64,000 nucleotides of DNA from Candidatus Latescibacterota bacterium. GTDB taxonomy: Bacteria; Latescibacterota; UBA2968; UBA8231. The position numbers and the translations under genes were made by a program. The stretch is taken from contig OY730476.1 of assembly GCA_963422735.1 (NCBI GenBank), positions 2,816,001 to 2,880,000 of the forward strand, in the 5' to 3' direction. Positions 26,546-39,468 of the stretch are shown in pieces; position 1 is the first letter of the stretch, and each line of letters starts with the position of its first letter. The notes under the pieces are model-generated. The model had not been told where the DNA came from and did not search any database. It saw only the letters and a list, made by a program, of their open reading frames with translations.

Positions 26546-28947
26546 TCGGCCTGCTGGTCCTCTGCCTAGCTCTCGCCCATCCGCGAGGCAGCGAGGCGTC
26601 CGAGATCCAACTGCAACAGGCCCGCTCCCTGCTGACCCAAGCCAAAGGCCAAGGTTTTGCATACCAAGCCACCTATATGCACTACTACGAGATCGGCGAC
26701 TCGCTCCTGTTGCAGGGACAGGCCCGCGTCTCGCACAAGGGCGCTCAGCTAGAGGCCGCCGAAATCGTCTTCCGCCGCGCCCTTGACCAAGTCGAAGCGC
26801 GGGCGACCCTCGATTCGAGTGGGCGTGTCGTCGGCCGCCCGGTACTACGCAAAGGCGACCAAACCCTGCGCGGCGAGCGCATCCTCTACGACCTATCCAC
26901 CGAGCAAGGAACCATCCTCAAAGGCAAGATCCACCGCGATAAGGGATTTTACGCCGGACGCTTGATACAGACCCTCAGCGGCACCGAGTTCCGAGTACAC
27001 CAAGGCTCGTACACCACATGCGACGCCGACCCCCCGCACTTTGACTTCTACAGCCCGCGGATCAAGGTCTTAGCCGGCGACATGGCCGTGGCGCGCCCTG
27101 TGTATTTCCGCATCAAAGAGCGGCGGCTGTTGTGGATTCCCTTCTACGTATTCTCGCTGCGTGAAGACCGCCAGACCGGGCTTTTGACGCCGAGTTTTGG
27201 GCAACGCGCCCTTAGATTTGGGGCGCTTCAAAGCGAGTGGGAACTGCGCAACTTGGGCTACTATCTCGCGCCCAACGACTATTGGGACCTATCCCTAGCA
27301 GCCGACCTGCGGCAGCGCTCGGGCTGGCTAGGGCGCGCCCGCCTCAACTACGCCGCACGCTACCGATTTAGAGGGCACGTCAGCACCCAGTTCGAAAACC
27401 GCCAAGAGGGCCGCACGGCCGCGCACAACTGGCGGCTGGAACTCAGGCACAGCCAAGAGCTAGGCCGCGACGCGAGCTTGCGGGCCAACGGCACCTTCCA
27501 GAGCAACAACAGCTTTGCCCAAGACAATAGCGCGAGTCTCCAAGACCGCCTCAACCGCACCCTGCGCTCCAACCTCAGCTACTCTCGGCGGTGGCGCGGC
27601 TCGGGCAACAGCTTCGGCCTGAAAGCAAGCCAAACCAAAAATCTCGACACCGAGACGTTCTCCACCATTCTGCCCGAACTCAGTCTGCGCAAAAGCCGCA
27701 AGCCGATTTGGGGCCGAGCGGGCCAAAGCCGTCAAAGCCGCCAAAACCTCCCCTGGTACAGTCGCATGTACTACGACGGCAACGCCAGCCTGCGCAACAC
27801 TCGGCGCGGTACTCGCACGGACACGACCAGCCAAACCAGCGCTCAAGTAAGCTGGCGCGTCAGCGCGCAGTACCGTCCCTTCTCTTGGTTCAATTTTAGC
27901 CCGGCACTCAACCAAGACTGGCGCGACCAAGATCTGCGCGAGAGCGCAACCCGCAGTCGGCGCAGCGACCGCTTCTCGACCCGCGCGGCCCTGAGCCAGA
28001 CCTTCTACGGGCTTTTCAACCCGTCCATCGGCCCGCTTCAAGCCCTGCGCCACGTGCTCAAACCCAGCATCTCGTTCAACTATCAAGCCTCCCGCGCCGA
28101 CACCGGCGGCGTCTTGGGCTTTGGCGGCGACGGCAGCCGGCTCCAACACCGGCGGACATTGAACTTGCGCCTCGACAACACCTTCTGGGCCAAAATCCTG
28201 CGCGAAGAAGAAGAGCAGAAAGTGCGACTAGTCCAGCTCAATTTCTCTACGGCCTATAAATTTGAGCAAAAGGAAAAGCGGCTAGACGACCTGCAAACGA
28301 CCCTAAGCGTCGAGGCAGGTCGCTACCTGAATTCGCGACTGACTTTGCGCCACAGGTTCTACGACGAGCAGAATCAACTGCATCTATTGGCACCGCGCCG
28401 CAGGCAGCTTGAAGTGCGGACCTCAGCTAGCTGGTCGCGGCGGTCGGGGAAGGCGCGCTCGGACGCCGCCTCCAGCCGCTACGGACAGGGTGATTTTGAC
28501 GCCTCCAGTCGCTACGGACAAAGCAGCTTCGGCACCGCCAGTCCCTACAGCCGAGAATCCTTCGGCTTTGAAAGCGGCCTCATGCACGACATCGACAACC
28601 GCCGTCGCGGCAGCCGCTTCCAGCTCAGCCACTACTTCTCGCACCGCCGCGCCACGACTACTAGCACCATTCGCTCTTGGGTACGGGCTGCGGCCGGCTT
28701 TAACTTGGGGTCGCGCTGGCATTGCAATTATTCGCTCAACTACAATCTACGTGCCCCGAGGACGCGGCTGTTGGCCATCAAGCGCATCACTTACGAACTG
28801 TTGTCCCTGCAAAAGGAATTCCACGACTGGACCGCAACTTTCAACATGCAACCAAGTACCTTCTACAAAAACCGGGCGTTCTTTTTTAAGGTGCAGTTGA
28901 AAGACATTCCGCAACTCAAACTCGAGCGCGGCCAGCGAAGATTCTAA
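26542..28947 (+). CDS. lptD: LPS assembly protein LptD-like outer membrane protein
   Basis: Signal-like N-terminus, GSYTTCD..PHF, TGLLTPSFG, GYYLAPNDYWD, alternating beta-strand pattern. Confidence 0.75.
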   Translation: MIGLLVLCLALAHPRGSEASEIQLQQARSLLTQAKGQGFAYQATYMHYYEIGDSLLLQGQARVSHKGAQLEAAEIVFRRALDQVEARATLDSSGRVVGRPVLRKGDQTLRGERILYDLSTEQGTILKGKIHRDKGFYAGRLIQTLSGTEFRVHQGSYTTCDADPPHFDFYSPRIKVLAGDMAVARPVYFRIKERRLLWIPFYVFSLREDRQTGLLTPSFGQRALRFGALQSEWELRNLGYYLAPNDYWDLSLAADLRQRSGWLGRARLNYAARYRFRGHVSTQFENRQEGRTAAHNWRLELRHSQELGRDASLRANGTFQSNNSFAQDNSASLQDRLNRTLRSNLSYSRRWRGSGNSFGLKASQTKNLDTETFSTILPELSLRKSRKPIWGRAGQSRQSRQNLPWYSRMYYDGNASLRNTRRGTRTDTTSQTSAQVSWRVSAQYRPFSWFNFSPALNQDWRDQDLRESATRSRRSDRFSTRAALSQTFYGLFNPSIGPLQALRHVLKPSISFNYQASRADTGGVLGFGGDGSRLQHRRTLNLRLDNTFWAKILREEEEQKVRLVQLNFSTAYKFEQKEKRLDDLQTTLSVEAGRYLNSRLTLRHRFYDEQNQLHLLAPRRRQLEVRTSASWSRRSGKARSDAASSRYGQGDFDASSRYGQSSFGTASPYSRESFGFESGLMHDIDNRRRGSRFQLSHYFSHRRATTTSTIRSWVRAAAGFNLGSRWHCNYSLNYNLRAPRTRLLAIKRITYELLSLQKEFHDWTATFNMQPSTFYKNRAFFFKVQLKDIPQLKLERGQRRF

Positions 28948-28959
28948 GAAGCAGTGGTT

Positions 28960-28985
28960 AGCCCCCACATCGCGCCCTGGGGGCT
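28960..28985. terminator. Hairpin between convergent lptD and island operon
   Basis: AGCCCCCA / TGGGGGCT stem; no U tract. Confidence 0.3.
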
Positions 28986-29000
28986 GAGTGAGCCAACGAC

Positions 29001-29286
29001 TCAAGCGGATTGGGTGGGCGGCTCTCGTTCGAGGCGGCCGACATTGACTTCGCGGAAGGCTTCGACGATCTGAACCGGGAGTTGGTGTGGCTCGGCAATG
29101 CAAGCGGCCATCTGCCGCACCCGCTGCATAGACAGCTGCGATGGGAAGCAGTGCGCGATAGGCGGCCGTGCAGCGAGCCTGTCGCCAGCCCAATGGCGTG
29201 AGGGGATAGTCCACAAGGCGATGGGAAAACTCGCCGGTCTGATTGGCGCGGTTTTTGCCGTGGCGCGCCAGCCACACCGCGTTCAT
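29001..29286 (-). pseudogene. Histidine phosphatase (PGAM-like) remnant
   Basis: MNAVWLARHG...DYPLTPLGWRQA..AVYA, then another frame QRVRQMA..I...FREVNVG; truncated; ATGA overlap with upstream gene. Confidence 0.7.
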
Positions 29287-30347
29287 CGGTTCAGAATCTC
29301 CAAGACGTGTTCTAGCAGAGGCTGCTCCTCGGCGGCCAGTGCGTCGAGCATCTCGCTCGCCCGCGTGAGCGTGTCAGGCCGTTGATGCGTTTTCCAGCGC
29401 AACAGCACTAAGCGCAAACTGCGCGTCTTGCGCTCGATGGCACCAAAGCGCAGCCCAAGCTGCGCCGCCGGATCGAGATAGCCCCGCGCTTCCATGTACT
29501 GCAACCGCGCCTGCATACCCGTTTTGTGCTCCCACAGGATGCGCCATGAGATGTCGCGATAGGCGGCCGGGTCTTCCAGTTCGCGCCGGAGGAACACATA
29601 GACGTCCCTGCCCCAAAAGCCACCCTCTCGCGGCGCAGCCAACAGCCGGTAACGCTGCGCCGTGTCGGCGGCGAACAGATAGTCGGCCAACTGTTCGGCC
29701 ACTGCACACGGGTCGAAGGTATACCATTGGTCGGGCAAATACTTGTAGAGAAATACTCGCGGGCGATCTTCCATCGACGAAAGAAACCATGCCGGCAGGG
29801 GCCGGCCGGCTTGCGATACCTGCTGCATGTGGCCTTCGCGGGTGAACGAACACGCCCGTTCCATGACGACAAACGGTACGCGAGAGATCGCGTATCCACC
29901 CTGTTGGTCGAAGCCGGACAGCAGCAAGGTCCGTTCCTCGGTATCGTAGCCGGACACGAGCACTTCGTGGATGAAGTGATGCCGCTGATAGTGCGGTCGG
30001 TTGGGCAGATAGAAGAAATCGACATCGGTCTGGACGTAATAGCCGCGGTCAATACACGAGACGATCCATGAGATAATATCCGCGGTAGCCAGCCCTAGCA
30101 GGTGGCGGTCAACGGTCTGGACGTCGAGAAAGGGACAGGTGGAAAAGTAGAGATGGCGCACCTCATGGCGGGTGCAGAAGGGATGGGTGTAGAACTTCAG
30201 CTCTTCGCCGGGGAAATTGAACAGTTGAATGTGGGTGCTGTATAGCCACGGCAGGTAGGTATCCGCTTGGGCGAGGATGGACAGCGGGTACGCATGGAAT
30301 AGATAGGAACGGATCGGCGGCGGATGCAGGGGCAGGGTGTGCTGCAA
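29283..30347 (-). CDS. BtrH-like (papain/NlpC-P60-fold) protein, candidate ACP-dependent acyltransferase
   Basis: WIVSCIDRGYYVQTDVDFFYLP...HHFIHEVLVSGYD resembles BtrH_N-type domains; likely TTG start at 30347, right after the ACP. Confidence 0.55.
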   Translation of the reverse strand: MQHTLPLHPPPIRSYLFHAYPLSILAQADTYLPWLYSTHIQLFNFPGEELKFYTHPFCTRHEVRHLYFSTCPFLDVQTVDRHLLGLATADIISWIVSCIDRGYYVQTDVDFFYLPNRPHYQRHHFIHEVLVSGYDTEERTLLLSGFDQQGGYAISRVPFVVMERACSFTREGHMQQVSQAGRPLPAWFLSSMEDRPRVFLYKYLPDQWYTFDPCAVAEQLADYLFAADTAQRYRLLAAPREGGFWGRDVYVFLRRELEDPAAYRDISWRILWEHKTGMQARLQYMEARGYLDPAAQLGLRFGAIERKTRSLRLVLLRWKTHQRPDTLTRASEMLDALAAEEQPLLEHVLEILNR

Positions 30348-30351
30348 GGAG

Positions 30352-30609
30352 TCAATCCGCCATCCGCTTGCCGACGACGTATTCAGCCAGCGCATTCACC
30401 GAGCCAAACAGTTCGACGGTCAGTTCGTCGTCTTTGACCGCGATGCCGAAGGCCTCCTCAATGGCGGCGACGATCTCTAAGGTGGCCATCGAATCGAGCT
30501 CCATACCCCCAAACAGGGCCTCGTCGTCGGGGATCTCCGCCGGGTCCACGTCCAATCCAAGGGCAGCGACGATCAGGCCCTTGATCTGCGCTTTTAATTG
30601 CTCGGACAC
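30352..30609 (-). CDS. Acyl carrier protein
   Basis: 85 aa, acidic; LFGGMELDSMATLEIVAAIEEAFGI with phosphopantetheine Ser. Confidence 0.9.
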   Translation of the reverse strand: MSEQLKAQIKGLIVAALGLDVDPAEIPDDEALFGGMELDSMATLEIVAAIEEAFGIAVKDDELTVELFGSVNALAEYVVGKRMAD

Positions 30610-32486
30610 GATGCAGACTCCTCGGCAAAATGGTTGACCACCGTATCCACCATCCGCTGTTGGCCTTCCTCTGACAAAATCGACACCGCCGGCAAGCTAA
30701 AACGATCTTCAAGCCGATTTAGGATACGGGCGATTTCTTCCGCGGTCATCGAATCCGCCTTGACGAAAGTGCGGCCGTAAGCAGCGCGGATGTACTTTTT
30801 TTGGTCGCTCATCGCCAAAAGCAGGGTCGGTGCTTTGGCAAGGGCGCGCAGGCTGTTGATGGTGTCTTGGATATACTCGTCGGCGTCAATGCTGTTGACT
30901 ACGAGGATACACGCATCCGGCTTGGTGCCCAGCAGAAAGGCCGTCGAGGTCAAAGAATGGGTGCGGTGTTCATGCACATCGTAGGGAATAGTGCCCGACT
31001 GCGAGCCGACCACGATGAGATCGGGCTGCTTCTGCTGGCTGAGTTGCCGCAGTTTGTAATCCAGATAGGGGACGTAGTATTGCAACGGCAGCGACACATT
31101 AGGGGCGTATCCCATAGGGAAGGCCCCGTCCATGCCAAACAGTGCCGCATGGTGCTCGGTGCCGATCTGACCGACTCTGTAACCGAGGTGCAAAAGGTGG
31201 CGGCGCAGGATCAGTTGCAAGGTGAACTTGCCCTGTTGGGCACTCGTGCCAAACACGCCCAACACTGGCACATCAACCGGACCATAGGCCGGCTCGGCTT
31301 GGAGGGCTTGCTGCACGTCGTCGGACGCGACCGAGGGATACGTCAGATGTAGCCCCTTCTTCCGGGCAAGATCGTATAGGTCGCCATACTCGTCTTGGGG
31401 CACGGCGAGGAAACTGAAAACATGGCAGTTGTGCTCCAAGGCGGTCTCAATGGATGTACGCAGCACGTCTTGCTTGCCAATCCGCCCTAACTGATCGACA
31501 TAGCCAAGGATGAGCGTATCCGCTTCCTCAAGGACCGAAGCGAGCCGAGGCCGAATGCGTACCCCGATGGCGGGTAGGCCAAGTACCGTGCCCGCATCTT
31601 GGCCTACCAGCCCCTTGCCCACCGGATCGGCAATACCCGCAATCTCAAAGGCGAGCAAATCTCGCGCCCGGACCAGCGCATGCATTTCCTTGTTGAACGG
31701 GTAGAGTGCCGCCTTCTGAATCCAAGTGAAGTCCGAGGATGGAGCGCAAGGAAGAGACACAGTCGTCGGACGCGGGCGCTCACGCTGGATTAGTTCCGGC
31801 GTCCCTTCTAGTGCGTTGGCCTGCAACAAATCGCGCACCTGTTCCAGCGGCGCACCCGGATGCGCTTGGCGAATCATGGCGACCACGCCAGTGACGTGCG
31901 GCGCGGCGAAGCTAGTGCCCGACATCATCAGATACGGCGGATCACTCCAGCAAACCCGTTGGGCATCGCCACGGGCGACGCATTCGATCTCGTGCCCCGG
32001 ACGGTAGTAATACCCATAGCGGCCCCGCACCTTGCCTCCCGCAACGCCGATGACGTCCGGCAAGACCGCCGGATAACTTTCGCGCCCGTCGTTGTGTTCG
32101 GCCGCTACCAGAATGACGCCGGCTTCGCGAGCTTGGCGACAGACATCGGCGAGCCCGTCGCGGAAAGCAACATCCGTCGTGCCCAAGCTGAGGTTGACCA
32201 CATCCATCCGCTGCTCAATCGCCCAGCGGATCGCCGCGAGGAGAAAGGGAGGGTCGGCCGTTAGGGATTCATCGAAGAGGCGAACATCGTACAAAGTTGC
32301 GGTCGGCGCGATCTGGAGAATAATGCCCGCGCAAGCCGTGCCGTGACCCGCACCAACCGCCGCTTGCCGAGGCACCGAATCGAGGCACACCTCGTGAACC
32401 GCGCCGATCTTTTCGTGTGTCGAGTCAATACCCGAGTCGATGATCGCGACGCGGACGGGATGATCAGATTGATTCGTCAAGAGCAT
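30594..32486 (-). CDS. S8 subtilase fused to DUF1611/TIGR04066-like P-loop domain
   Basis: Triad IIDSGID / GHGTACAG / SGTSFAAPHV; no signal peptide; C-half KAALYPFNKE...GLVGQDAG, PVLGVFGTSAQQGKFTLQL, GYRVGQIGTE, PDLIVVGSQSG. Confidence 0.8.
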   Translation of the reverse strand: MLLTNQSDHPVRVAIIDSGIDSTHEKIGAVHEVCLDSVPRQAAVGAGHGTACAGIILQIAPTATLYDVRLFDESLTADPPFLLAAIRWAIEQRMDVVNLSLGTTDVAFRDGLADVCRQAREAGVILVAAEHNDGRESYPAVLPDVIGVAGGKVRGRYGYYYRPGHEIECVARGDAQRVCWSDPPYLMMSGTSFAAPHVTGVVAMIRQAHPGAPLEQVRDLLQANALEGTPELIQRERPRPTTVSLPCAPSSDFTWIQKAALYPFNKEMHALVRARDLLAFEIAGIADPVGKGLVGQDAGTVLGLPAIGVRIRPRLASVLEEADTLILGYVDQLGRIGKQDVLRTSIETALEHNCHVFSFLAVPQDEYGDLYDLARKKGLHLTYPSVASDDVQQALQAEPAYGPVDVPVLGVFGTSAQQGKFTLQLILRRHLLHLGYRVGQIGTEHHAALFGMDGAFPMGYAPNVSLPLQYYVPYLDYKLRQLSQQKQPDLIVVGSQSGTIPYDVHEHRTHSLTSTAFLLGTKPDACILVVNSIDADEYIQDTINSLRALAKAPTLLLAMSDQKKYIRAAYGRTFVKADSMTAEEIARILNRLEDRFSLPAVSILSEEGQQRMVDTVVNHFAEESASCPSN

Positions 32487-32527
32487 CTTTTTGGTATGCG
32501 TGACGCAGGCCACATTCAGGGTTACTA

Positions 32528-33393
32528 CTACTCTCGGTTAAAGTAGAAGGTTAATTCTGGCTTTTGGCGGGCGCGTATGGCAATCGTTGAATCCATGCCA
32601 ATCGCCGTCGCTAAGTCCGCTCTGGCCAACGCCGTTTCACCGCGCCAGCGCGAATGCGGGCTCTATAATACCACGCAACACCGGTTTCGTCGTCGAGGGA
32701 TACCGCCCGATTCAGCGCGTCAATTCCTTCGTCTAGTCGGCCTGTACCGATAAAGAGCATGCTGCGCTTGATCCACGACGCGAGGTGATCCGGGTCGTGC
32801 TGCAACGCGGCCGCAAGGGCCGCTTCAGCAGCCTCATAATCCTTTTCTTGCATGTGGAGCGAACCAATACGTCCCCAGAAATGCGCCAAATGGGCGTCCG
32901 TGGAATCGGCGACCAAGCAGGTTTTGTAAACCTGTACGGCTTCCTCTACATGTCGTAGATCGCGTAGAAGATCGCCCGTTCGCTGGCATAATCCCACGTT
33001 TTTGGGGTCTAAGCGGAACGCCGCAGAATAAAATGCTAGTGCTTGAACTGAATCCTTCATGGCCAGACAGGCATCGCCCTTGCTCTTCCACAGCCAAGGA
33101 TCGTTTTCGTCATATCGCAGAGCCGTATTCAGCGCGTCGAGCGCACGGCGGGGATCCTCCAGCGATAGGTAACCCTTTGCAAGTGCTTTCCAAGTGCGCA
33201 ACGAATCACCTTCTAAAGCAAGCACTTGTTCATAAGCGCGAAGGGCCATCCGGTATTCACGATTCGCCATAAGTCGGTCTCCGTGTTGCAAGTAGGTATC
33301 TCCATCCGATAGATCATACCTTACTATTATGTACAACAGTGAAAGAATAGTTATGGCATTGATCACCACAGTAGAGACGATCCAGTTTTTCAC
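32528..33393 (-). CDS. Membrane-anchored TPR protein (1-nt frameshift near 32645)
   Basis: N-terminal TM, then TPRs; the track ORF stops at 32611 but the adjacent frame continues RGETALARADLATAIGMDS...NRE, ending in TAG TAG TAA. Confidence 0.7.
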
Positions 33394-34133
33394 AACACAG
33401 GATTCAACCTATAAACGCTAGATGAGAAGACCACTTCTGCTACTATATTGGCAACGCCGTGTAGCACAACACAGGATCCAATTGAACGAGATCGTTCATA
33501 GTACATAACAAGCACGAGACCCAGTCCTAAATGGGGTAAGAGTGCTAAAATCTTCCCTTCCATGTTGTAGTGACATAATGCAAACAGTACGACATTTGCC
33601 ACAACAGCCCATACAAAAGGCAAATGCCTTTTGAGATAGGGATACAGAAGACCTCTAAATAGCCATTCCTCTACTAAGGGAATGACGATGACACCCTGTA
33701 ATACTCTTATAATTGATAAATCGATTAGGTGCATCACCGGAGGGATATAACCGGCCGATCTAGATAGATTCGCTGGAACCGTAATCAACACGACTAGGAG
33801 AACAGCCAGCCAGACCCCCGTACCCATACCATATAGAGATAGCTTGATTTGCTTAGGCACGGTTCCTACCATGAGATGATAACAGGTAAGCATCAAAACC
33901 ATAGCGGCCGCATGGGAACCAAAAAGGTAGATCGTGACGACTTTCATATCCCGCAACAGCAAGGATTCCTCAGCCCAGTTATCGACATAAGTGTTCCTGA
34001 GTGCAACAAAAAAGAATAAAGTGGCGAACTGTAGGACGACCAAGATGAGGTTCCATGGACACTCCCATTCTTGCTTTCGCATGGTGTCCCAAGTGTTGAG
34101 CACGGTTCTATAGACTGATCTCATGGTATGCAC
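33390..34133 (-). CDS. CPBP (CAAX/Abi) intramembrane glutamic protease
   Basis: PLVEEWLFRG, FALCH, HGVAN. Confidence 0.85.
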   Translation of the reverse strand: MHTMRSVYRTVLNTWDTMRKQEWECPWNLILVVLQFATLFFFVALRNTYVDNWAEESLLLRDMKVVTIYLFGSHAAAMVLMLTCYHLMVGTVPKQIKLSLYGMGTGVWLAVLLVVLITVPANLSRSAGYIPPVMHLIDLSIIRVLQGVIVIPLVEEWLFRGLLYPYLKRHLPFVWAVVANVVLFALCHYNMEGKILALLPHLGLGLVLVMYYERSRSIGSCVVLHGVANIVAEVVFSSSVYRLNPVL

Positions 34134-34196
34134 AACACACTCTAAGTACTGACAGGATCCCCTATTTATAAGGATCCTTATGATCCTGACAGATGC

Positions 34197-34481
34197 TCAA
34201 TCCTTGCCTTTGCGCCCTGTTTGCGCTTGCAATAAAGGTGCGCCTCCCAAGGCTTCCTGTTCGAGCGAAATGTTCGGATCGATGAACCATTCGACCGGCT
34301 GGCCATACAGATCGGCAAGACGGATCAGCTCTGGCGTGAAGACGGGCCGCTCACCTGATTCAATGCGGCTGATCGTGGATTGGTCGCGACCGAGCTTCGC
34401 ATAGGCGGTCTCTTGGCTGATCTGCCGGCGTTTGCGTACAAAGCGCAATCGCCGACCGATCTCTTCGGGGGTTATGGGCAT
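34197..34481 (-). CDS. XRE-family HTH regulator
   Basis: IGRRLRFVRKRRQISQE...DQSTISRIESGER...LADLYG. Confidence 0.85.
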   Translation of the reverse strand: MPITPEEIGRRLRFVRKRRQISQETAYAKLGRDQSTISRIESGERPVFTPELIRLADLYGQPVEWFIDPNISLEQEALGGAPLLQAQTGRKGKD

Positions 34482-34562
34482 AATAGATGCTCCGGGCATT
34501 GGATGTGGAAGGTATGGCATGGCCAAAATAGCGAAGGCTCGTTTTATGGAAGAAGGCTGAGT

Positions 34563-35474
34563 TCAGGGGCCTAGACCTCCAGCGAGGATGTCAGTTGCGA
34601 GGTAAATGAGGGCGTTTGTGCATCCATGAACGGCGGTGCATACGATCAGAGATCGCGTCCGTTCGTAAATAAGAGCCAAGGCTACACCTACTATAAAGGC
34701 AGGCACTAGTCTTGCCGGATCTAGGTGAACCAAGGCGAAAATCAACGAAGAGATCAATGTAGCCTTGAGCAAGCTAGTCTGCTGACGTAGAGCAGAAAAG
34801 AAAAGCCGGCGAAAAATGAGCTCTTCGACAAAAGGAAGTAAGATGATTAAAGATAGAACGTGTAAAACTATAAGCGTCGCAGGATAATCAAGTACGAAGG
34901 TTCGTTCTATCCTACTAGGGTGCAACAAATATAGATAGCTAATCCATACTGGACTGAGCATTAAAGACCAGAATACATAGAGCCGATCTCTAGGACGATT
35001 TACATACCGCCACTGATAGTAAACGGCGATAGGCTCAATACTGCTGTGTTTCTTGATAGCAATCCTAATCACAACAATAGCACCTATCCCCATTCCCACA
35101 GACCTTGAAGCTCTCATACCAGAATCAAAATCAAATTGGGCTATATTTATTGCAATAATTAGAATACAAAATACAACTATATACAAAGACGCACCCTTAA
35201 AATTGTGAGTGAATATGTAGGGCAGAATTACCAAATAGAACAAGGCTCCCAATAGAGTGCTTATAGTAATCTGATATTCTCGATATAGATCAAATCTATC
35301 TGTTGAGTAGTTCGTATCTACACCCATCTGATGTACGATAGACTCAAACAGTACTGCAGCCATACCAGTTGTGTGTCTGACCAGTAGGCCGGTTAGACAT
35401 CCGATCACGACGATACGGGTTATGGTCATAGAATTACCCAAAGCGGAACAAGTGTTGGTGTTGCCAAACTTCAA
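34563..35474 (-). CDS. CPBP (CAAX/Abi) intramembrane glutamic protease
   Basis: PFVEELIFRR, FALVH, HGCTN; many TM helices; start may be 35429. Confidence 0.85.
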   Translation of the reverse strand: MKFGNTNTCSALGNSMTITRIVVIGCLTGLLVRHTTGMAAVLFESIVHQMGVDTNYSTDRFDLYREYQITISTLLGALFYLVILPYIFTHNFKGASLYIVVFCILIIAINIAQFDFDSGMRASRSVGMGIGAIVVIRIAIKKHSSIEPIAVYYQWRYVNRPRDRLYVFWSLMLSPVWISYLYLLHPSRIERTFVLDYPATLIVLHVLSLIILLPFVEELIFRRLFFSALRQQTSLLKATLISSLIFALVHLDPARLVPAFIVGVALALIYERTRSLIVCTAVHGCTNALIYLATDILAGGLGP

Positions 35475-35492
35475 AAATTCTTCCCAGATGTA

Positions 35493-35522
35493 TAGGGCTG
35501 AGGCCTTGAGGCCTCAGCCCTA
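35493..35522 (-). terminator. Perfect hairpin 3' of the precursor gene (stabiliser or attenuator)
   Basis: TAGGGCTGAGGCCT-TG-AGGCCTCAGCCCTA; no U tract on the coding strand. Confidence 0.65.
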
Positions 35523-35538
35523 ACGTTAGTCCCGACCC

Positions 35539-35949
35539 CTAATAACTTCCAGCCTGAGCGTTGTTGTGGTCGTCTGCATATGGGTCATTACAGGTGCCCC
35601 CATAATACCCACCATTATTACTGCCACTCGGAGGTATAGACCCTGCCGAACTCGAACCGCTGTTCTCCGTAGCCCAATCCCAAACATCTTCTGCGGCATC
35701 CGCTATGGCATTCCCCGCTTCCTCTAACGCGTGGGTAATCTGTTCCTCTGCTTCGGAGGCCCATACGACTAGGGCAACACCAGCACCAACGACTGGATTT
35801 GCAGTGGCTGCGGTAGCCGCAGCACCAATTGCCGCAACCGTACATCCGTGTTTCACGTCGTGCAAGTCGAGTCCGTCCTTTTCGTTGTGACAAGCCTCTA
35901 TGGCTTTAGTATCGTAAACCCTCCGAGGGGGTTTGCAGAGAATCTGCAT
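35539..35949 (-). CDS. Putative bacteriocin/RiPP precursor (136 aa)
   Basis: GGAGG RBS; leader-like N-terminus ending KAIEA-C; Ala/Gly/Val hydrophobic core; Ser/Gly/Asn-rich tail; sits between the ABC exporter and CPBP genes. Confidence 0.7.
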   Translation of the reverse strand: MQILCKPPRRVYDTKAIEACHNEKDGLDLHDVKHGCTVAAIGAAATAATANPVVGAGVALVVWASEAEEQITHALEEAGNAIADAAEDVWDWATENSGSSSAGSIPPSGSNNGGYYGGTCNDPYADDHNNAQAGSY

Positions 35950-36125
35950 GTGTTTCCTCCGTTTTAATGGGTGGTTTTTATTAAACTTGTGAAGATACGG
36001 TGCTATGCATTGTACGACTCACTCCTTTCTCCTATGGGGCTGCATAGCTGTGTACCCCGCTGTGTACGTGTGCATCGGATTATGCCTCGCAAGCATCCTC
36101 CTGATGAACGCCTTGCGAAAACCCT

Positions 36126-37841
36126 TCATATCCGCGCCATTTTGTCAAACAACGCGGCATAAGCTCCGCCGGTGTTCAGCAGCCAATCGTGGGTCCCTTG
36201 TTCGGCTACGCTTCCGCTTTCCAATACGACGATCTGATCGGCCGCTCGAATGGTTGACAGACGATGGGCAACGATGATCGTGGTGCGCCCTTCCTGCACC
36301 GTCTTGAGTGCCTCGTGAATGTGGTATTCCGACTCCGCATCCAAGGCCGAAGTCGGTTCGTCCAAAATCAGAATGGGCGTATCCATCAACAGAACGCGTG
36401 CCAGCGCAATGCGCTGCCTTTGTCCCTCGGAAAACTTGACGCCCTGTTCTCCAACTAGGGTATCGTATCCCTGGGGCAGAGTAGTTATAAAGTCATGGAT
36501 ATAAGCAGCACGGGCAGCGTCCTCTATCGTCCTAAGAGGAATATCCTGATTAAACGCCAAGTTCTCTTTAATGCTGCCCTGAAACAGAGTACTTCCCTGT
36601 AAGGCAAAGCCGATCTGCCGCCGCAGCGACGGCAAGCGAAACGCCCGGATGTCCTGCCCGTCAATGGCGACACTGCCTTCTGTCGGGTCATAAAATCGGG
36701 GGACCAACTTGGCCAACGTCGATTTTCCTGACCCGCTTCTGCCTACTAAGGCTGTCGTCGTACCCGCTTCGATAACCAAATTGATCCGCCGCAAGACCGG
36801 GTGCTGGCCATCGTAGGATAAACTCAGTTCATTGAATTCAACTTGACCCGCCGTAATCGTGAGTGGCGGTGCTTTGGGATCATCTTGGATGGCCGGACGT
36901 ATGTGGTAGATTTCAAAAAAGCGGTTGATATGCACCAGAGTCAGTTCAATACTGCGAATGAGCTCGATTAAATTCTTGATCGGCCCATAGAGAAAACCCA
37001 CGTACGCCGTGAAGGCCATAAAACTACCCAAGGACAAATTCCCCGAAAGAATCTGTGCCCAACCGTACCAGCTATAGGCCAAGGTCCCGCTCGTATTAAT
37101 GAGCCCTCCAACAAACCCCGATCCACCCGAAAATAGAGCCGACCGGACGCGAAGGTTGGCGAGGACAGTGAAGAGGCCCTCCAGTTTCTCGTAAAACCTC
37201 GCTTCCAATCCTAGCGCCTGCACGGTCCGAATACCGTTGAGCGACTCATAGTTCTTCGCCGATAGCTCAGCGGAACGCTCCGCGATTTTCTCGGAGAAAC
37301 GGCGCATATACTTGCGGGTAATAACCACAAGCAATGTATCGAAAGGCAAAACAGCTATACTGATAAGTGCTAACTTCCAGTTGATGTAGAATAGAATCGG
37401 CGGGAAGATCAGTAGCTGAAGGGAGTTCATAATGAAGGTGTTTATGATGCGGATTACGCTGCTAATAGAACTCCTCATATCCCTGAAACGCGAGAGGATT
37501 TCCCCGGTCTCTTTCTGATCGAAAAAACTAAAATCGAGCGACCGTACATGTCGATAGAAAAGAGATTGGAAATCGAAACCAAGACGTACACCCACGCATT
37601 GGCCAAAATAGCTACTAAGGAAACTCACGCCTCCCAATCCTGTGGAAACAGCGGCCCCAAGCAGCAGAGCAAACGCTAGTAAATTCCAATCTTTATGAGG
37701 ATACACATCGTCAATGAGTATTTTTGTGAAATACGGTCCTGGTATCTGCAACAACAAGACCAAGACACCGACTAGTAGAGACTGAGCGATATAGCGCCAG
37801 TACGGTCGCAAAAGCCGTATGATCTGTATAATTTCATTCAT
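36126..37841 (-). CDS. ABC exporter, TMD+NBD, no C39 peptidase domain
   Basis: GRSGSGKST, FSEGQRQR, LILDEPTSALD, VAHRLST. Confidence 0.92.
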   Translation of the reverse strand: MNEIIQIIRLLRPYWRYIAQSLLVGVLVLLLQIPGPYFTKILIDDVYPHKDWNLLAFALLLGAAVSTGLGGVSFLSSYFGQCVGVRLGFDFQSLFYRHVRSLDFSFFDQKETGEILSRFRDMRSSISSVIRIINTFIMNSLQLLIFPPILFYINWKLALISIAVLPFDTLLVVITRKYMRRFSEKIAERSAELSAKNYESLNGIRTVQALGLEARFYEKLEGLFTVLANLRVRSALFSGGSGFVGGLINTSGTLAYSWYGWAQILSGNLSLGSFMAFTAYVGFLYGPIKNLIELIRSIELTLVHINRFFEIYHIRPAIQDDPKAPPLTITAGQVEFNELSLSYDGQHPVLRRINLVIEAGTTTALVGRSGSGKSTLAKLVPRFYDPTEGSVAIDGQDIRAFRLPSLRRQIGFALQGSTLFQGSIKENLAFNQDIPLRTIEDAARAAYIHDFITTLPQGYDTLVGEQGVKFSEGQRQRIALARVLLMDTPILILDEPTSALDAESEYHIHEALKTVQEGRTTIIVAHRLSTIRAADQIVVLESGSVAEQGTHDWLLNTGGAYAALFDKMARI

Positions 37842-38229
37842 CTGTTGCTTTTCGGCCCGACCCCTCCATCTCTGGATCGCGCTGTAAGTTCGCCTACCTT
37901 TTTCTCATCAAAGTAGCTAAAGCTCAAGCCACTCAGATGTTGATATAGGCCATAACCAACTCCGATACCTACACGCATACTGAGATTGTGGTCAAAATAG
38001 CCGCGCAAATGGCTGACCAATCCCGTCATTACTGCTACGCCGGCATTGAAAACGAGGACGAATTCCAGCAGGCTAACACTCTTGGATGGGTAAACATTGT
38101 CGATAAGAATTTTCGTGACGTAGGGTGGTATCAAGGCAATCAGTGCTAAAAGGCCACTCACGGCTACAGATTTCATCATCAACCCTCGATGAGCCCGTAT
38201 CAGTGCCATTCCCCTAAGGTACTCGTCAT
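37838..38229 (-). pseudogene. Internally deleted second ABC exporter half
   Basis: PPYVTKILIDNVYP and LSFSYFDEKKVGELTARSRD parallel PYFTKILIDDVYP and LDFSFFDQKETGEILSRFRD of the next gene; ends after ~130 aa. Confidence 0.7.
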
Positions 38230-39468
38230 CTCCGCTGACTCCTGCCGATGGAAATCGTGTCTCGCCACCGGCTCCACAGACTGCAACAGCTTCTTCCACA
38301 ACAGCTCCACGATCCTTCCCCTCTCTACCACCACCTTAACCTCGGCATTCATCCCATACGCCAGCGCATACACCTGCTTCCCATCCCACACCTGCGGATC
38401 GCGAATCGACACTTTTATTGGATAGACGGTGCCCTCCGCAGCGTTTCCCACCACCGGCACAGCCGATACCGCTTCCACCGTCCCCTCAAACACCTTGTAT
38501 TCCGTATGCGGAAACGCATTCACATACAGACGCGCCGGCTGCCCGATCTCTATCTTGGGCAGGTCGGTTTCCTTAACCATAATCCGCGCTAGCCACCCAT
38601 CGGTCTGAGCTAATTCGAGAATCGCTTCTCCCTCTTGGAGACGATCCCCCACCCGCTGCTCCAACTGACCCGCCAGCACCGTGCCCGCCGCCGGTGCCCG
38701 GATCGTGTGCTTGGCCAGTCGGTTTTCCAACCGCCGGCGTTCCTGCTCTATCTTCTCGCGCTGTTTTTCCAAGGTGTGGAGTTCGGCTGCTCGTCCTTCC
38801 ACGGCCTGAAGCCGCTGCTGGATTCGTTCCAGATCGGCTTCTGCCTGCTGCAACAGGGCGTTGCTCAGCCGCACCGGCAGTAGTTGCTCCAATGGCTGGC
38901 GTACCACACGGACGGGCAACACACCGGCCGAGTAGATGCTTTGTTCGGCCACGACCTGCTCCTGTTGGATGCGCATTCGCTCTACTTGCCGCTGGGCATG
39001 GGCGACCTCGGCGTGCCTAATGTTGCGCTCTTGCTCCATCTGCTGCTGAATGGCTCGCTGCTGGCTCTGGTTTACTTCGAGGTCCTTTTCTGTTTTTTGT
39101 AGTTGGATCCGCCAGTCAGTATCGTCGAGCGTGACCAACGGCTGCCCCTTTTCTACCGGCTGCCCCTGTCGGACGTGTATCTGCTGGATGATCCCCGCGA
39201 TCTCGGCCTTGACCCGATGCCGATGCCGCGGCTCGATGACGCCCTTGCCCTCCACGGTCATATCCATGCTGAAATGCCAGCTCAACATGCCGGCGAGCAC
39301 CAGCAAGCACCCCACCAACATCAGAATCACCAAGAGAAAGGAGCGCACGAAACGGAAGCCTGGTCCGTGGAATTCTTCCCCTATACTCAGGACAGTGCGG
39401 CGGCGATCCTGCAATGAGGGACGGTCGTTTTGCACCAGCACTTGGGATTCAGCGGTTAGAGCCGGCAT
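38200..39468 (-). CDS. HlyD-family membrane fusion protein
   Basis: N-terminal TM, VRQGQPVEKGQPLVTLD, coiled coil, IRAPAAGTV, GMNAEVKV. Confidence 0.9.
   Translation of the reverse strand: MPALTAESQVLVQNDRPSLQDRRRTVLSIGEEFHGPGFRFVRSFLLVILMLVGCLLVLAGMLSWHFSMDMTVEGKGVIEPRHRHRVKAEIAGIIQQIHVRQGQPVEKGQPLVTLDDTDWRIQLQKTEKDLEVNQSQQRAIQQQMEQERNIRHAEVAHAQRQVERMRIQQEQVVAEQSIYSAGVLPVRVVRQPLEQLLPVRLSNALLQQAEADLERIQQRLQAVEGRAAELHTLEKQREKIEQERRRLENRLAKHTIRAPAAGTVLAGQLEQRVGDRLQEGEAILELAQTDGWLARIMVKETDLPKIEIGQPARLYVNAFPHTEYKVFEGTVEAVSAVPVVGNAAEGTVYPIKVSIRDPQVWDGKQVYALAYGMNAEVKVVVERGRIVELLWKKLLQSVEPVARHDFHRQESAEMTSTLGEWH

Follow-up and report, generated by a model that had tools for sequence, protein, structure and literature searches.

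We found that, in a 64,000-nucleotide (nt) stretch of the genome of a Candidatus Latescibacterota bacterium (GCA_963422735.1, contig OY730476.1, positions 2,816,001 to 2,880,000; hereafter the window), a subtilase of peptidase family S8 is joined in one polypeptide to a TIGR04066/DUF1611-like domain, and that the gene for this fusion is followed directly by a gene for an acyl carrier protein (ACP). The fusion is not a product of chance, since more than 1000 proteins carry both Pfam domains: a word-indexed search with the fusion returned that number at E <= 0.001, and both domains were present in 120/120 of the matches listed. We propose, with a probability of roughly 40%, that the fusion is a bifunctional cytoplasmic maturation enzyme of a bacteriocin-like system, similar to those that make ribosomally synthesised and post-translationally modified peptides (RiPPs), in which the S8 half would cut the peptide and the C-terminal half would acylate it with a group borne by the ACP. 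The parts of the fusion gene are as follows.

30594..32486, minus strand: fusion gene, S8 protease, linker and TIGR04066/DUF1611-like domain, 630 amino acids (aa), from ATG 32486
31779..32456, minus strand: S8 subtilase domain, residues ~11-236 (Pfam PF00082, NCBIfam QhpE model)
32436-32438, 32343-32345 and 31911-31913, minus strand: catalytic triad Asp17, His48 and Ser192
31716..31778, minus strand: Pro-rich interdomain linker, residues 237-257
30597..31715, minus strand: TIGR04066/DUF1611-fold domain, residues 258-630, a Rossmann-like subdomain with YPFNKEMH followed by a P-loop subdomain
31221..31250, minus strand: P-loop GTSAQQGKFT, residues 413-422

Residue numbers count from the ATG at 32486, that is, in the 630-aa form. 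The longer frame of this open reading frame (ORF), 30594..32513 on the minus strand, starts at a GTG at 32513 and adds 9 aa (639 aa), and close homologues align from residue 1 of the ATG start, which agrees with the original prediction made for this stretch, where that ATG had been taken as the end of the gene. Two other elements of that prediction were recovered as described. The linker after the S8 domain (residues 237-257, RPRPTTVSLPCAPSSDFTWIQ) is moderately Pro-rich and begins RPRPTTVSLPCAPSS at the site given there, and the stop of the fusion gene (30594-30596) lies inside the ACP ORF, with an overlap of 16 nt.

The fusion is widespread in poorly studied phyla

We searched 1.84 billion representatives exhaustively with HMMER, using a profile of the C-terminal half, and detected 2133 representatives at E <= 0.001 and 773 at E <= 1e-30. 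Among the 150 best representatives, 127 were fused to at least 150 residues of an S8 domain, 6 contained part of such a domain and 17 contained none, the last consisting of ten stand-alone proteins (347-418 aa), one tandem protein (728 aa) and six shorter fragments (230-334 aa). The tandem protein (P0161) carries two TIGR04066/DUF1611-like domains and no protease domain. Named carriers of the fusion include metagenome-assembled genomes (MAGs) of Latescibacterota, with proteins 81-88% identical to the window fusion, together with Gemmatimonadota, Melioribacteraceae and Rosettibacter (both Ignavibacteriota), Planctomycetota, Spirochaetales and Lachnospiraceae. Database names, where given, were 'S8 family serine peptidase' or 'NAD-dependent epimerase/dehydratase family protein', the latter from the Joint Genome Institute (JGI).

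A second copy of the fusion gene, 60% identical to the first, is located 1.6 Mb away in the same genome, outside the window (G000:C1:1218208-1220076, equal to L006:10074-12098; L numbers designate the fetched loci). Downstream of it are genes for an ACP, a conserved 211-aa protein without a family, a canonical BtrH_N/DUF4872 protein, HlyD and an AcrB-type pump, and upstream of it are genes for a GNAT-like protein, a DUF5128 six-bladed propeller and an ATP-binding cassette (ABC) protein without its ATPase domain. In four relatives the fusion was split by a frameshift or shortened (L025:9857-11946, L034:9794-11925, L012:10004-11272 and L027:1192-2388), by decay or by assembly error.

The N-terminal half resembles a cytoplasmic leader peptidase

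Pfam Peptidase_S8 (PF00082) matched residues 20-234 of the fusion (E 8.7e-28, 97.9 bits against a gathering cut-off of 21.8). The triad residues Asp17, His48 and Ser192, the last within GTSFA, were invariant in 30/30 aligned sequences covering 29-88% identity, and the oxyanion Asn98 was nearly so; among the 150 best representatives, counted per aligned position, the corresponding residues were kept in 123/124 (D), 128/128 (H), 134/135 (S) and 105/129 (N). Because Asp17 stands only 17 residues from the start (26 with the GTG), there is no space for a signal peptide or a propeptide. These results uphold the earlier description of a minimal S8 domain with an intact triad and neither of these elements, and a reading of the protein as a secreted protease was ruled out on the same ground.

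The best NCBIfam model for this half was QhpE (NF049966; E 3.1e-41, model positions 1-213 of 219), at 141.1 bits against an equivalog cut-off of 165, and the S8 half is QhpE-like rather than QhpE itself. QhpE is the subtilisin-like protease of quinohemoprotein amine dehydrogenase maturation, and serves there as a cytoplasmic leader peptidase that acts before ABC export. The two share a minimal cytoplasmic S8 domain without signal or propeptide, whereas QhpE is a single-domain protein, the fusion half stays below the equivalog cut-off, and no Qhp genes were found near the window fusion.

The C-terminal half has a DUF1611 fold with conserved polar residues

TIGR04066 matched residues 267-630 over its full length (model positions 2-360 of 361, E 7e-34), and the scanned fused relatives scored 58.9-125.7 bits with the same model. 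Pfam DUF1611_C (PF07755) matched residues 413-619 (E 2.2e-12, 47.2 bits against a gathering cut-off of 25), and DUF1611_N (PF17396), weak in the window fusion (E 0.0046, 17.7 bits against 22.6), exceeded its cut-off in the paralogue (24.0) and in the database protein P0042 (39.3). We aligned 25 C-terminal halves from the window and the fetched loci, and the profile of this alignment, compared with Protein Data Bank (PDB) sequences, matched the DUF1611 structure 2G0T (E 9.8e-11) and 7XRJ (E 0.0012). The AlphaFold2 model built on the same alignment had a mean predicted local distance difference test (pLDDT) score of 88.5 and a predicted template-modelling (pTM) score of 0.87. The seven best Foldseek matches of the model in the PDB were all chains of 2G0T, 2OBN and 7XRJ, with E values of 1e-11 to 1e-14 and template-modelling (TM) scores of 0.60-0.75 over the whole domain; for 7XRJ, titled 'N-acetyltransferase DgcN', the values were E 1.7e-12 and TM 0.60/0.67. 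The next matches (IcmF, DapB, Mur ligases and cyclic 2,3-diphosphoglycerate synthetase, all of P-loop/Rossmann type) were partial, with TM scores of 0.2-0.4. The predicted structure confirms that the C-terminal half folds like DUF1611/DgcN.

The likeness to TIGR04066 and to DUF1611/DgcN that had been claimed in the original prediction is thus borne out by the full-length TIGR04066 match, by the profile matches to 2G0T and 7XRJ, and by the Foldseek comparison, so that the lack of similarity named there as a refutation did not occur. The P-loop GTSAQQGKFT was located correctly there, and its description as degenerate did not hold, as GT....GK.T is the conserved DUF1611 form. In this loop, Thr414 was present in 150/150 and Lys420 in 146/150 of the best representatives, and elsewhere in the domain Glu444 was kept in 150/150, Gln496 in 144/148 aligned and Asp534 in 145/148 aligned. 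Such conservation argues that the C-terminal half holds a catalytic site and is not a relic. YPFNKEMH, at the start of the Rossmann-like subdomain, is a motif specific to the fusion family, and since it occupies the position of the glycine-rich loop, dinucleotide binding by this subdomain was set aside.

DgcN uses acetyl-CoA and free D-glutamate. The C-terminal half has in common with DgcN and other DUF1611 proteins (7XRJ, 2G0T, 2OBN) the arrangement of a Rossmann-like and a P-loop subdomain and the GT....GK.T sequence, but its identity to them is 14-17%, motifs are changed, YPFNKEMH is added, and it is fused to a protease and has an ACP rather than a racemase as its partner. The DgcN-DgcA pathway is named, and nothing more, in PMC10845958.

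An acyl carrier protein is coupled to the fusion gene

30352..30609, minus strand: acyl carrier protein, 85 aa, GTG start 30609 (Pfam PP-binding)

The ACP was matched by Pfam PF00550 (PP-binding; E 2.2e-11, 44.3 bits against a cut-off of 20.8). Its phosphopantetheine Ser40 lies in LDSMA (30490-30492), and the attachment Ser was invariant in 21/21 aligned ACPs, which suggests that a thioester intermediate is involved. GAGGAG, 8 nt before the GTG at 30609, looks like a Shine-Dalgarno sequence, and with the overlapping reading frames the ACP is probably translationally coupled to the fusion. An ACP-profile match (hidden Markov model of the ACPs) was present within 3 kb in 26/29 fetched loci with a full-length fusion, and in 21/29 the ACP was directly downstream, at -162 to +109 nt. 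One ACPS-type phosphopantetheinyl transferase is encoded in the window's genome, away from the operon. Complex prediction of the full fusion with the ACP gave scores of 0.02 and 0.08 against a mark of 0.32, which count neither way.

A candidate precursor and an exporter lie in the same operon

The window operon lies wholly on the minus strand, in the order HlyD, ABC remnant, ABC exporter, precursor, CPBP, HTH, CPBP, TPR, fusion, ACP and BtrH-like gene, and the closest relative, L007, has the same gene order. The remaining genes of the operon are listed below.

38200..39468, minus strand: HlyD-family membrane fusion protein
37838..38299, minus strand: second ABC exporter remnant, 153-aa ORF, N-terminal piece of the transmembrane domain (TMD) only
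36126..37841, minus strand: ABC exporter, TMD and nucleotide-binding domain, 571 aa
35539..35949, minus strand: candidate precursor, 136 aa, with a near-invariant 21-residue N-terminus, a Gly/Ala-rich hydrophobic stretch, an acidic helix and a variable tail
34563..35474, minus strand: CPBP (Rce1-like) intramembrane protease, possible immunity or processing protein (Pfam)
34197..34526, minus strand: helix-turn-helix (HTH) regulator, XRE-type (Pfam)
33390..34133, minus strand: second CPBP (Rce1-like) intramembrane protease (Pfam)
32611..33393, minus strand: tetratricopeptide repeat (TPR) protein with a hydrophobic N-terminus (membrane-anchored), directly upstream of the fusion
29283..30395, minus strand: divergent BtrH/CtaG-like protein, 370 aa, papain-like N-domain and helical C-domain

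The candidate precursor is single-copy in the genome and has nine database relatives. In an alignment of 12 sequences (mean column identity 41%), 14 of the first 21 positions were invariant and the remainder of the protein was variable. A related N-terminus, M-x-L-x-K-x-P-...-Y-D/E, was observed on Cys-rich 132-aa ORFs beside radical SAM genes in Ignavibacteriota loci and on a 135-aa ORF in a Gemmatimonadota locus. From this pattern and from their positions, the 136-aa protein and the related ORFs appear to be precursors with a leader. Within the precursor family, Cys5, Cys20, His21, His30, His34 and His73 are invariant, and these residues could be metal or modification sites and not plain leader. 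Regular-expression matches to the leader motif in L012, L014, L036-L038, L040 and L042 fell inside large enzymes or on other strands and were taken as chance, and a below-cut-off Pfam match of the precursor to RTBV_P12 (E 6.7e-4) was likewise judged to be chance.

The 571-aa exporter aligns from about position 140-155 of peptidase-bearing ABC models and so has no C39 peptidase domain, from which it follows that the exporter cannot itself remove a leader. The end of the HlyD gene and the 153-aa remnant beside the exporter overlap. The remnant shares 88% identity with residues 4-120 of a 571-aa ABC protein of L010 and looks like a leftover of recombination between two cluster types. The TPR protein is syntenic in L007, L009 and L012. 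Over window positions 32000-38000, where the genes for the precursor, the CPBP proteins and the ABC proteins lie, G+C content drops to 0.48-0.52 from about 0.60-0.64 on either side, which fits an acquired or fast-evolving cassette. A histidine-phosphatase gene adjoining the operon (28747-29286, minus strand) is broken: of a 217-aa homologue in L009, only residues 1-49 and 48-98 are matched, each in a different frame, either through gene decay or through an assembly indel.

A BtrH/CtaG-like protein follows the ACP

The 370-aa protein is a divergent relative of papain-like ligases. Pfam BtrH_N matched it just below the cut-off (E 5.2e-6), and hhalign against the canonical BtrH_N/DUF4872 neighbours of paralogous loci gave a probability of 91%. 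Its structural model, of moderate confidence only (pLDDT 71), has a bipartite papain-like and helical fold and matched AziU3/U2, CtaG and CcbD in Foldseek (E 1e-7 to 7e-4; CtaG, E 2e-5). His143 is invariant, and the expected Cys position reads Ser in 7/8 aligned sequences. According to PMC12865890, CtaG, BtrH and AsbE are papain-like ligases that make amide bonds from carrier-protein acyl groups through Cys-His-Asp. The window protein resembles this class in its bipartite fold, its kept His and its position beside a carrier-protein gene, and differs from it in having no invariant nucleophile Cys and a BtrH_N score below the cut-off; the known members, moreover, serve small-molecule pathways and not ribosomal peptides. 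A BtrH-like protein was detected by BLAST in 11/31 loci with a complete fusion, two frameshift-split loci being counted.

Accessory enzymes differ among loci

To survey the neighbours of the fusion, we scanned with Pfam 73 of 180 ORFs of at least 80 aa in 15 diverse loci, mostly same-strand genes beside the fusion. Radical SAM/SPASM RiPP maturases were present in 5/15 loci (L030, L031, L036, L040 and L041), so that relatives in Ignavibacteriota and Lachnospiraceae combine such maturases with the fusion; these proteins relate to the PapB, SCIFF, Clo7bot, CcpM and QhpD-type NCBIfam models, all below cut-off. One Latescibacterota MAG encodes the ACP and a transglutaminase-core domain as a single fused protein (L021:8264-9616), and in another an 897-aa protein with a peptidyl carrier protein (PCP) and a non-ribosomal peptide synthetase (NRPS) condensation domain follows the ACP (L014:12302-14995). 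A nucleotidyltransferase of the streptomycin-adenylyltransferase family stands directly after the ACP in two Ignavibacteriota loci (L030:8780-9628 and L031:12184-13032), and other neighbours included a PhyH dioxygenase (L018) and GNAT-like proteins. ABC and HlyD exporters were found by BLAST near most fusion loci. In several of the 15 loci, e.g. L016, L030/L031, L032, L036 and L040, no separate transferase was found near the fusion and ACP. In L030/L031 the radical SAM gene and the fusion are separated by a gene for a family-less protein of 521/522 aa.

Proposed function and alternatives

The coupling of leader removal to N-acylation of the new terminus, put forward in the original prediction, is partly supported and is the most economical reading. 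In the scheme that we favour, the subtilase half would remove the conserved N-terminal leader of the 136-aa precursor (35539-35949), and the C-terminal half, together with holo-ACP, would then place the ACP-borne acyl group on the peptide, most probably on the amine freed by the cut. By analogy with 7XRJ, titled as an acetyltransferase, the ACP would supply the acyl group from its phosphopantetheine thioester, in the role that acetyl-CoA has for DgcN; coenzyme A (CoA) carries the same phosphopantetheine group as the ACP arm. The BtrH/CtaG-like neighbour may extend or relay the cargo of the ACP, and the product would be exported by the C39-less ABC exporter and HlyD, with the CPBP proteins acting in immunity or processing. 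Our data establish the identities of the domains, the conservation of residues of catalytic type, the fold, the conserved association with an ACP and the gene context, whereas we infer that the precursor is cut, what the cargo is, which atom accepts it and which protein transfers it. That the protease and the TIGR04066 domain are fused in most of the family suggests that the peptide is the one molecule on which both halves work. An ACP neighbour with an invariant Ser, a QhpE-like S8 domain, a conserved precursor leader and an exporter without C39 are together best read as a system that cuts and acylates. The accessory enzymes on the ACP side (BtrH/CtaG-like proteins, the ACP-transglutaminase fusion and the PCP-condensation protein) are of types that move thioester-bound acyl groups to amines, as PMC12865890 describes for BtrH/CtaG.

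Several observations weigh against this scheme. The TIGR04066 score of the C-terminal half, 117.4 bits, is under the curated cut-off of 200, and the NCBIfam scan of the fusion gave no DgcN-specific match. In the one canonical DUF1611 sequence compared (TM0796, 2G0T), the motifs TGQTG and EGQG align with GTEHH (including Glu444) and GxQSG in the fusion family, while the 7XRJ alignment did not span these motifs, so that the active site of the C-terminal half differs from that of this one sequence. At 136 aa the precursor would be a long one among RiPPs, and it has no known cleavage site. The ACP was not found within 3 kb in 3/29 loci (L029, L032 and L042), of which the L029 contig ends 263 nt after the fusion and L032 and L042 are real gaps within that distance. 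In the alignment of eight sequences of the 370-aa protein no Cys is invariant, and the catalytic Cys is missing; where a BtrH/CtaG-like ligase is present, it could do the transfer in place of the C-terminal half. No adenylating enzyme, ATP-grasp protein, ketosynthase, acyl-ACP synthetase or fatty-acid/polyketide gene was found in the window, the paralogous locus or the 73 neighbour proteins of the 15 loci, and this lack of chain-building and activating genes leaves the cargo and its loading unexplained.

Because no other activating enzyme was seen in that set, the C-terminal half may instead be the loader of the ACP, charging it from a free acid and a nucleotide or from acyl-CoA. The S8 half would then only remove the leader, and transfer would fall to other proteins, for which the BtrH/CtaG-like ligase, the GNAT-like protein, the transglutaminase-like domain and the condensation domain are candidates. 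In BtrH/CtaG/CcbD-type systems a carrier protein works with a papain-like ligase (PMC12865890). To our knowledge, every known BtrH/CtaG-type system also needs an activating enzyme, which is a separate protein. A loader would suit the conserved P-loop with Lys420, Thr422, Glu444 and Asp534. It would also suit the weaker Foldseek matches, at E 1e-5 to 1e-6 and TM 0.2-0.3, to Mur-type ligases that depend on ATP and to cyclic 2,3-diphosphoglycerate synthetase. We nevertheless regard this explanation, the main alternative, as unlikely: it leaves unexplained why 127/150 representatives are fused to a peptidase, it fails for the loci without a separate transferase (e.g. L016, L030/L031, L032, L036 and L040), and 7XRJ, which has the same fold, is titled as an acyltransferase and not as a ligase. 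It is quite improbable, in our judgement, that the C-terminal half has no chemistry of its own and serves as a nucleotide-dependent or leader-binding regulatory or docking domain, positioning the precursor or the ACP while the ACP serves other enzymes. The wide differences in accessory enzymes among loci would be in keeping with such a role, as would the facts that activity of TIGR04066 and of the ACP is nowhere demonstrated and that NCBIfam labels TIGR04066 'hypoth_equivalog'. Yet polar residues of catalytic type are kept almost throughout 150 divergent representatives, as is the Ser of the ACP, and the ACP gene is tightly coupled to the fusion gene and not to the variable enzymes.

A peptidyl-thioester route, in which the ACP thiol captures the acyl-enzyme at Ser192 and the resulting peptidyl-S-ACP is amidated, cyclised or ligated by BtrH-like, transglutaminase-like or condensation enzymes, with the C-terminal half docking the ACP, would account for the fact that the variable neighbours all accept carrier-bound thioesters. 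Subtilase-type enzymes can resolve the acyl-enzyme with nucleophiles other than water, as the macrocyclase PatG does. With an N-terminal leader, however, the acyl-enzyme would carry the leader and not the core; the route has no precedent and leaves the conserved P-loop without a role, and we consider it highly improbable.

Relation to known systems

The closest described arrangement is a cassette of Firmicutes in which the radical SAM protein CcpM (TIGR04068), TIGR04066, the ACP-related TIGR04069, a subtilase and an ABC transporter are encoded by separate neighbouring genes; PMC4573289 and PMC10731318 describe it from genome mining, at the level of annotation. NCBIfam names the two families 'TIGR04066 family peptide maturation system protein' and, for TIGR04069, 'acyl carrier-related protein'. 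Both the cassette and the window encode a TIGR04066-type domain together with a small carrier protein, a protease of family S8 and an exporter of the ABC type. They differ in that the protease and the TIGR04066 domain form one polypeptide in the window, no Radical_SAM match was found among the 26 window ORFs scanned, and the window has in addition HlyD, a TPR protein, CPBP proteases and a BtrH/CtaG-like protein; the C-terminal half also falls below the TIGR04066 cut-off, and the window ACP had no match to TIGR04069 at E <= 0.01. The two parts, separate neighbouring genes in Firmicutes, are fused here, which points to a substrate shared by both halves. The parts are thus already catalogued, and the window system is a fused, BtrH/CtaG-like variant, without radical SAM among the ORFs scanned, of an uncharacterised kind. 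Our search of the full-text literature on the DUF1611/TIGR04066 family found annotation-level mentions only and no experimental work, with supplements and subscription journals outside its coverage.

N-acylated RiPPs, such as goadvionins, lipolanthines and selidamides, are made by GNAT enzymes with acyl-ACP and dedicated fatty-acid or polyketide genes. Like them, the proposed system would use a carrier-protein thioester to acylate a ribosomal peptide, around the time that the leader is removed or later, whereas the window has a P-loop domain of DUF1611 fold fused to a peptidase and no chain-building genes.

Implications

Carrier-protein chemistry on ribosomal peptides is rare, and the three-protein core, with its precursor, is a directly testable system. 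It is possible, although we hold it tentatively and on the unlikely side, that the fusion and its ACP represent an unrecognised route by which thiotemplated chemistry is grafted onto ribosomal peptides: a leader peptidase would be joined physically to a P-loop enzyme of DUF1611 fold working with phosphopantetheine-bound cargo, with the variable ligases extending the cargo to give ribosomal/non-ribosomal hybrids. On this same tentative view, hybrid products would span Latescibacterota, Gemmatimonadota, Ignavibacteriota, Planctomycetota and Lachnospiraceae. If the C-terminal half is indeed an acyl-ACP-dependent transferase or an ACP loader, the wider DUF1611 fold would gain a second function, and the fusion would become a new genome-mining marker for modified bacteriocins in poorly studied phyla.

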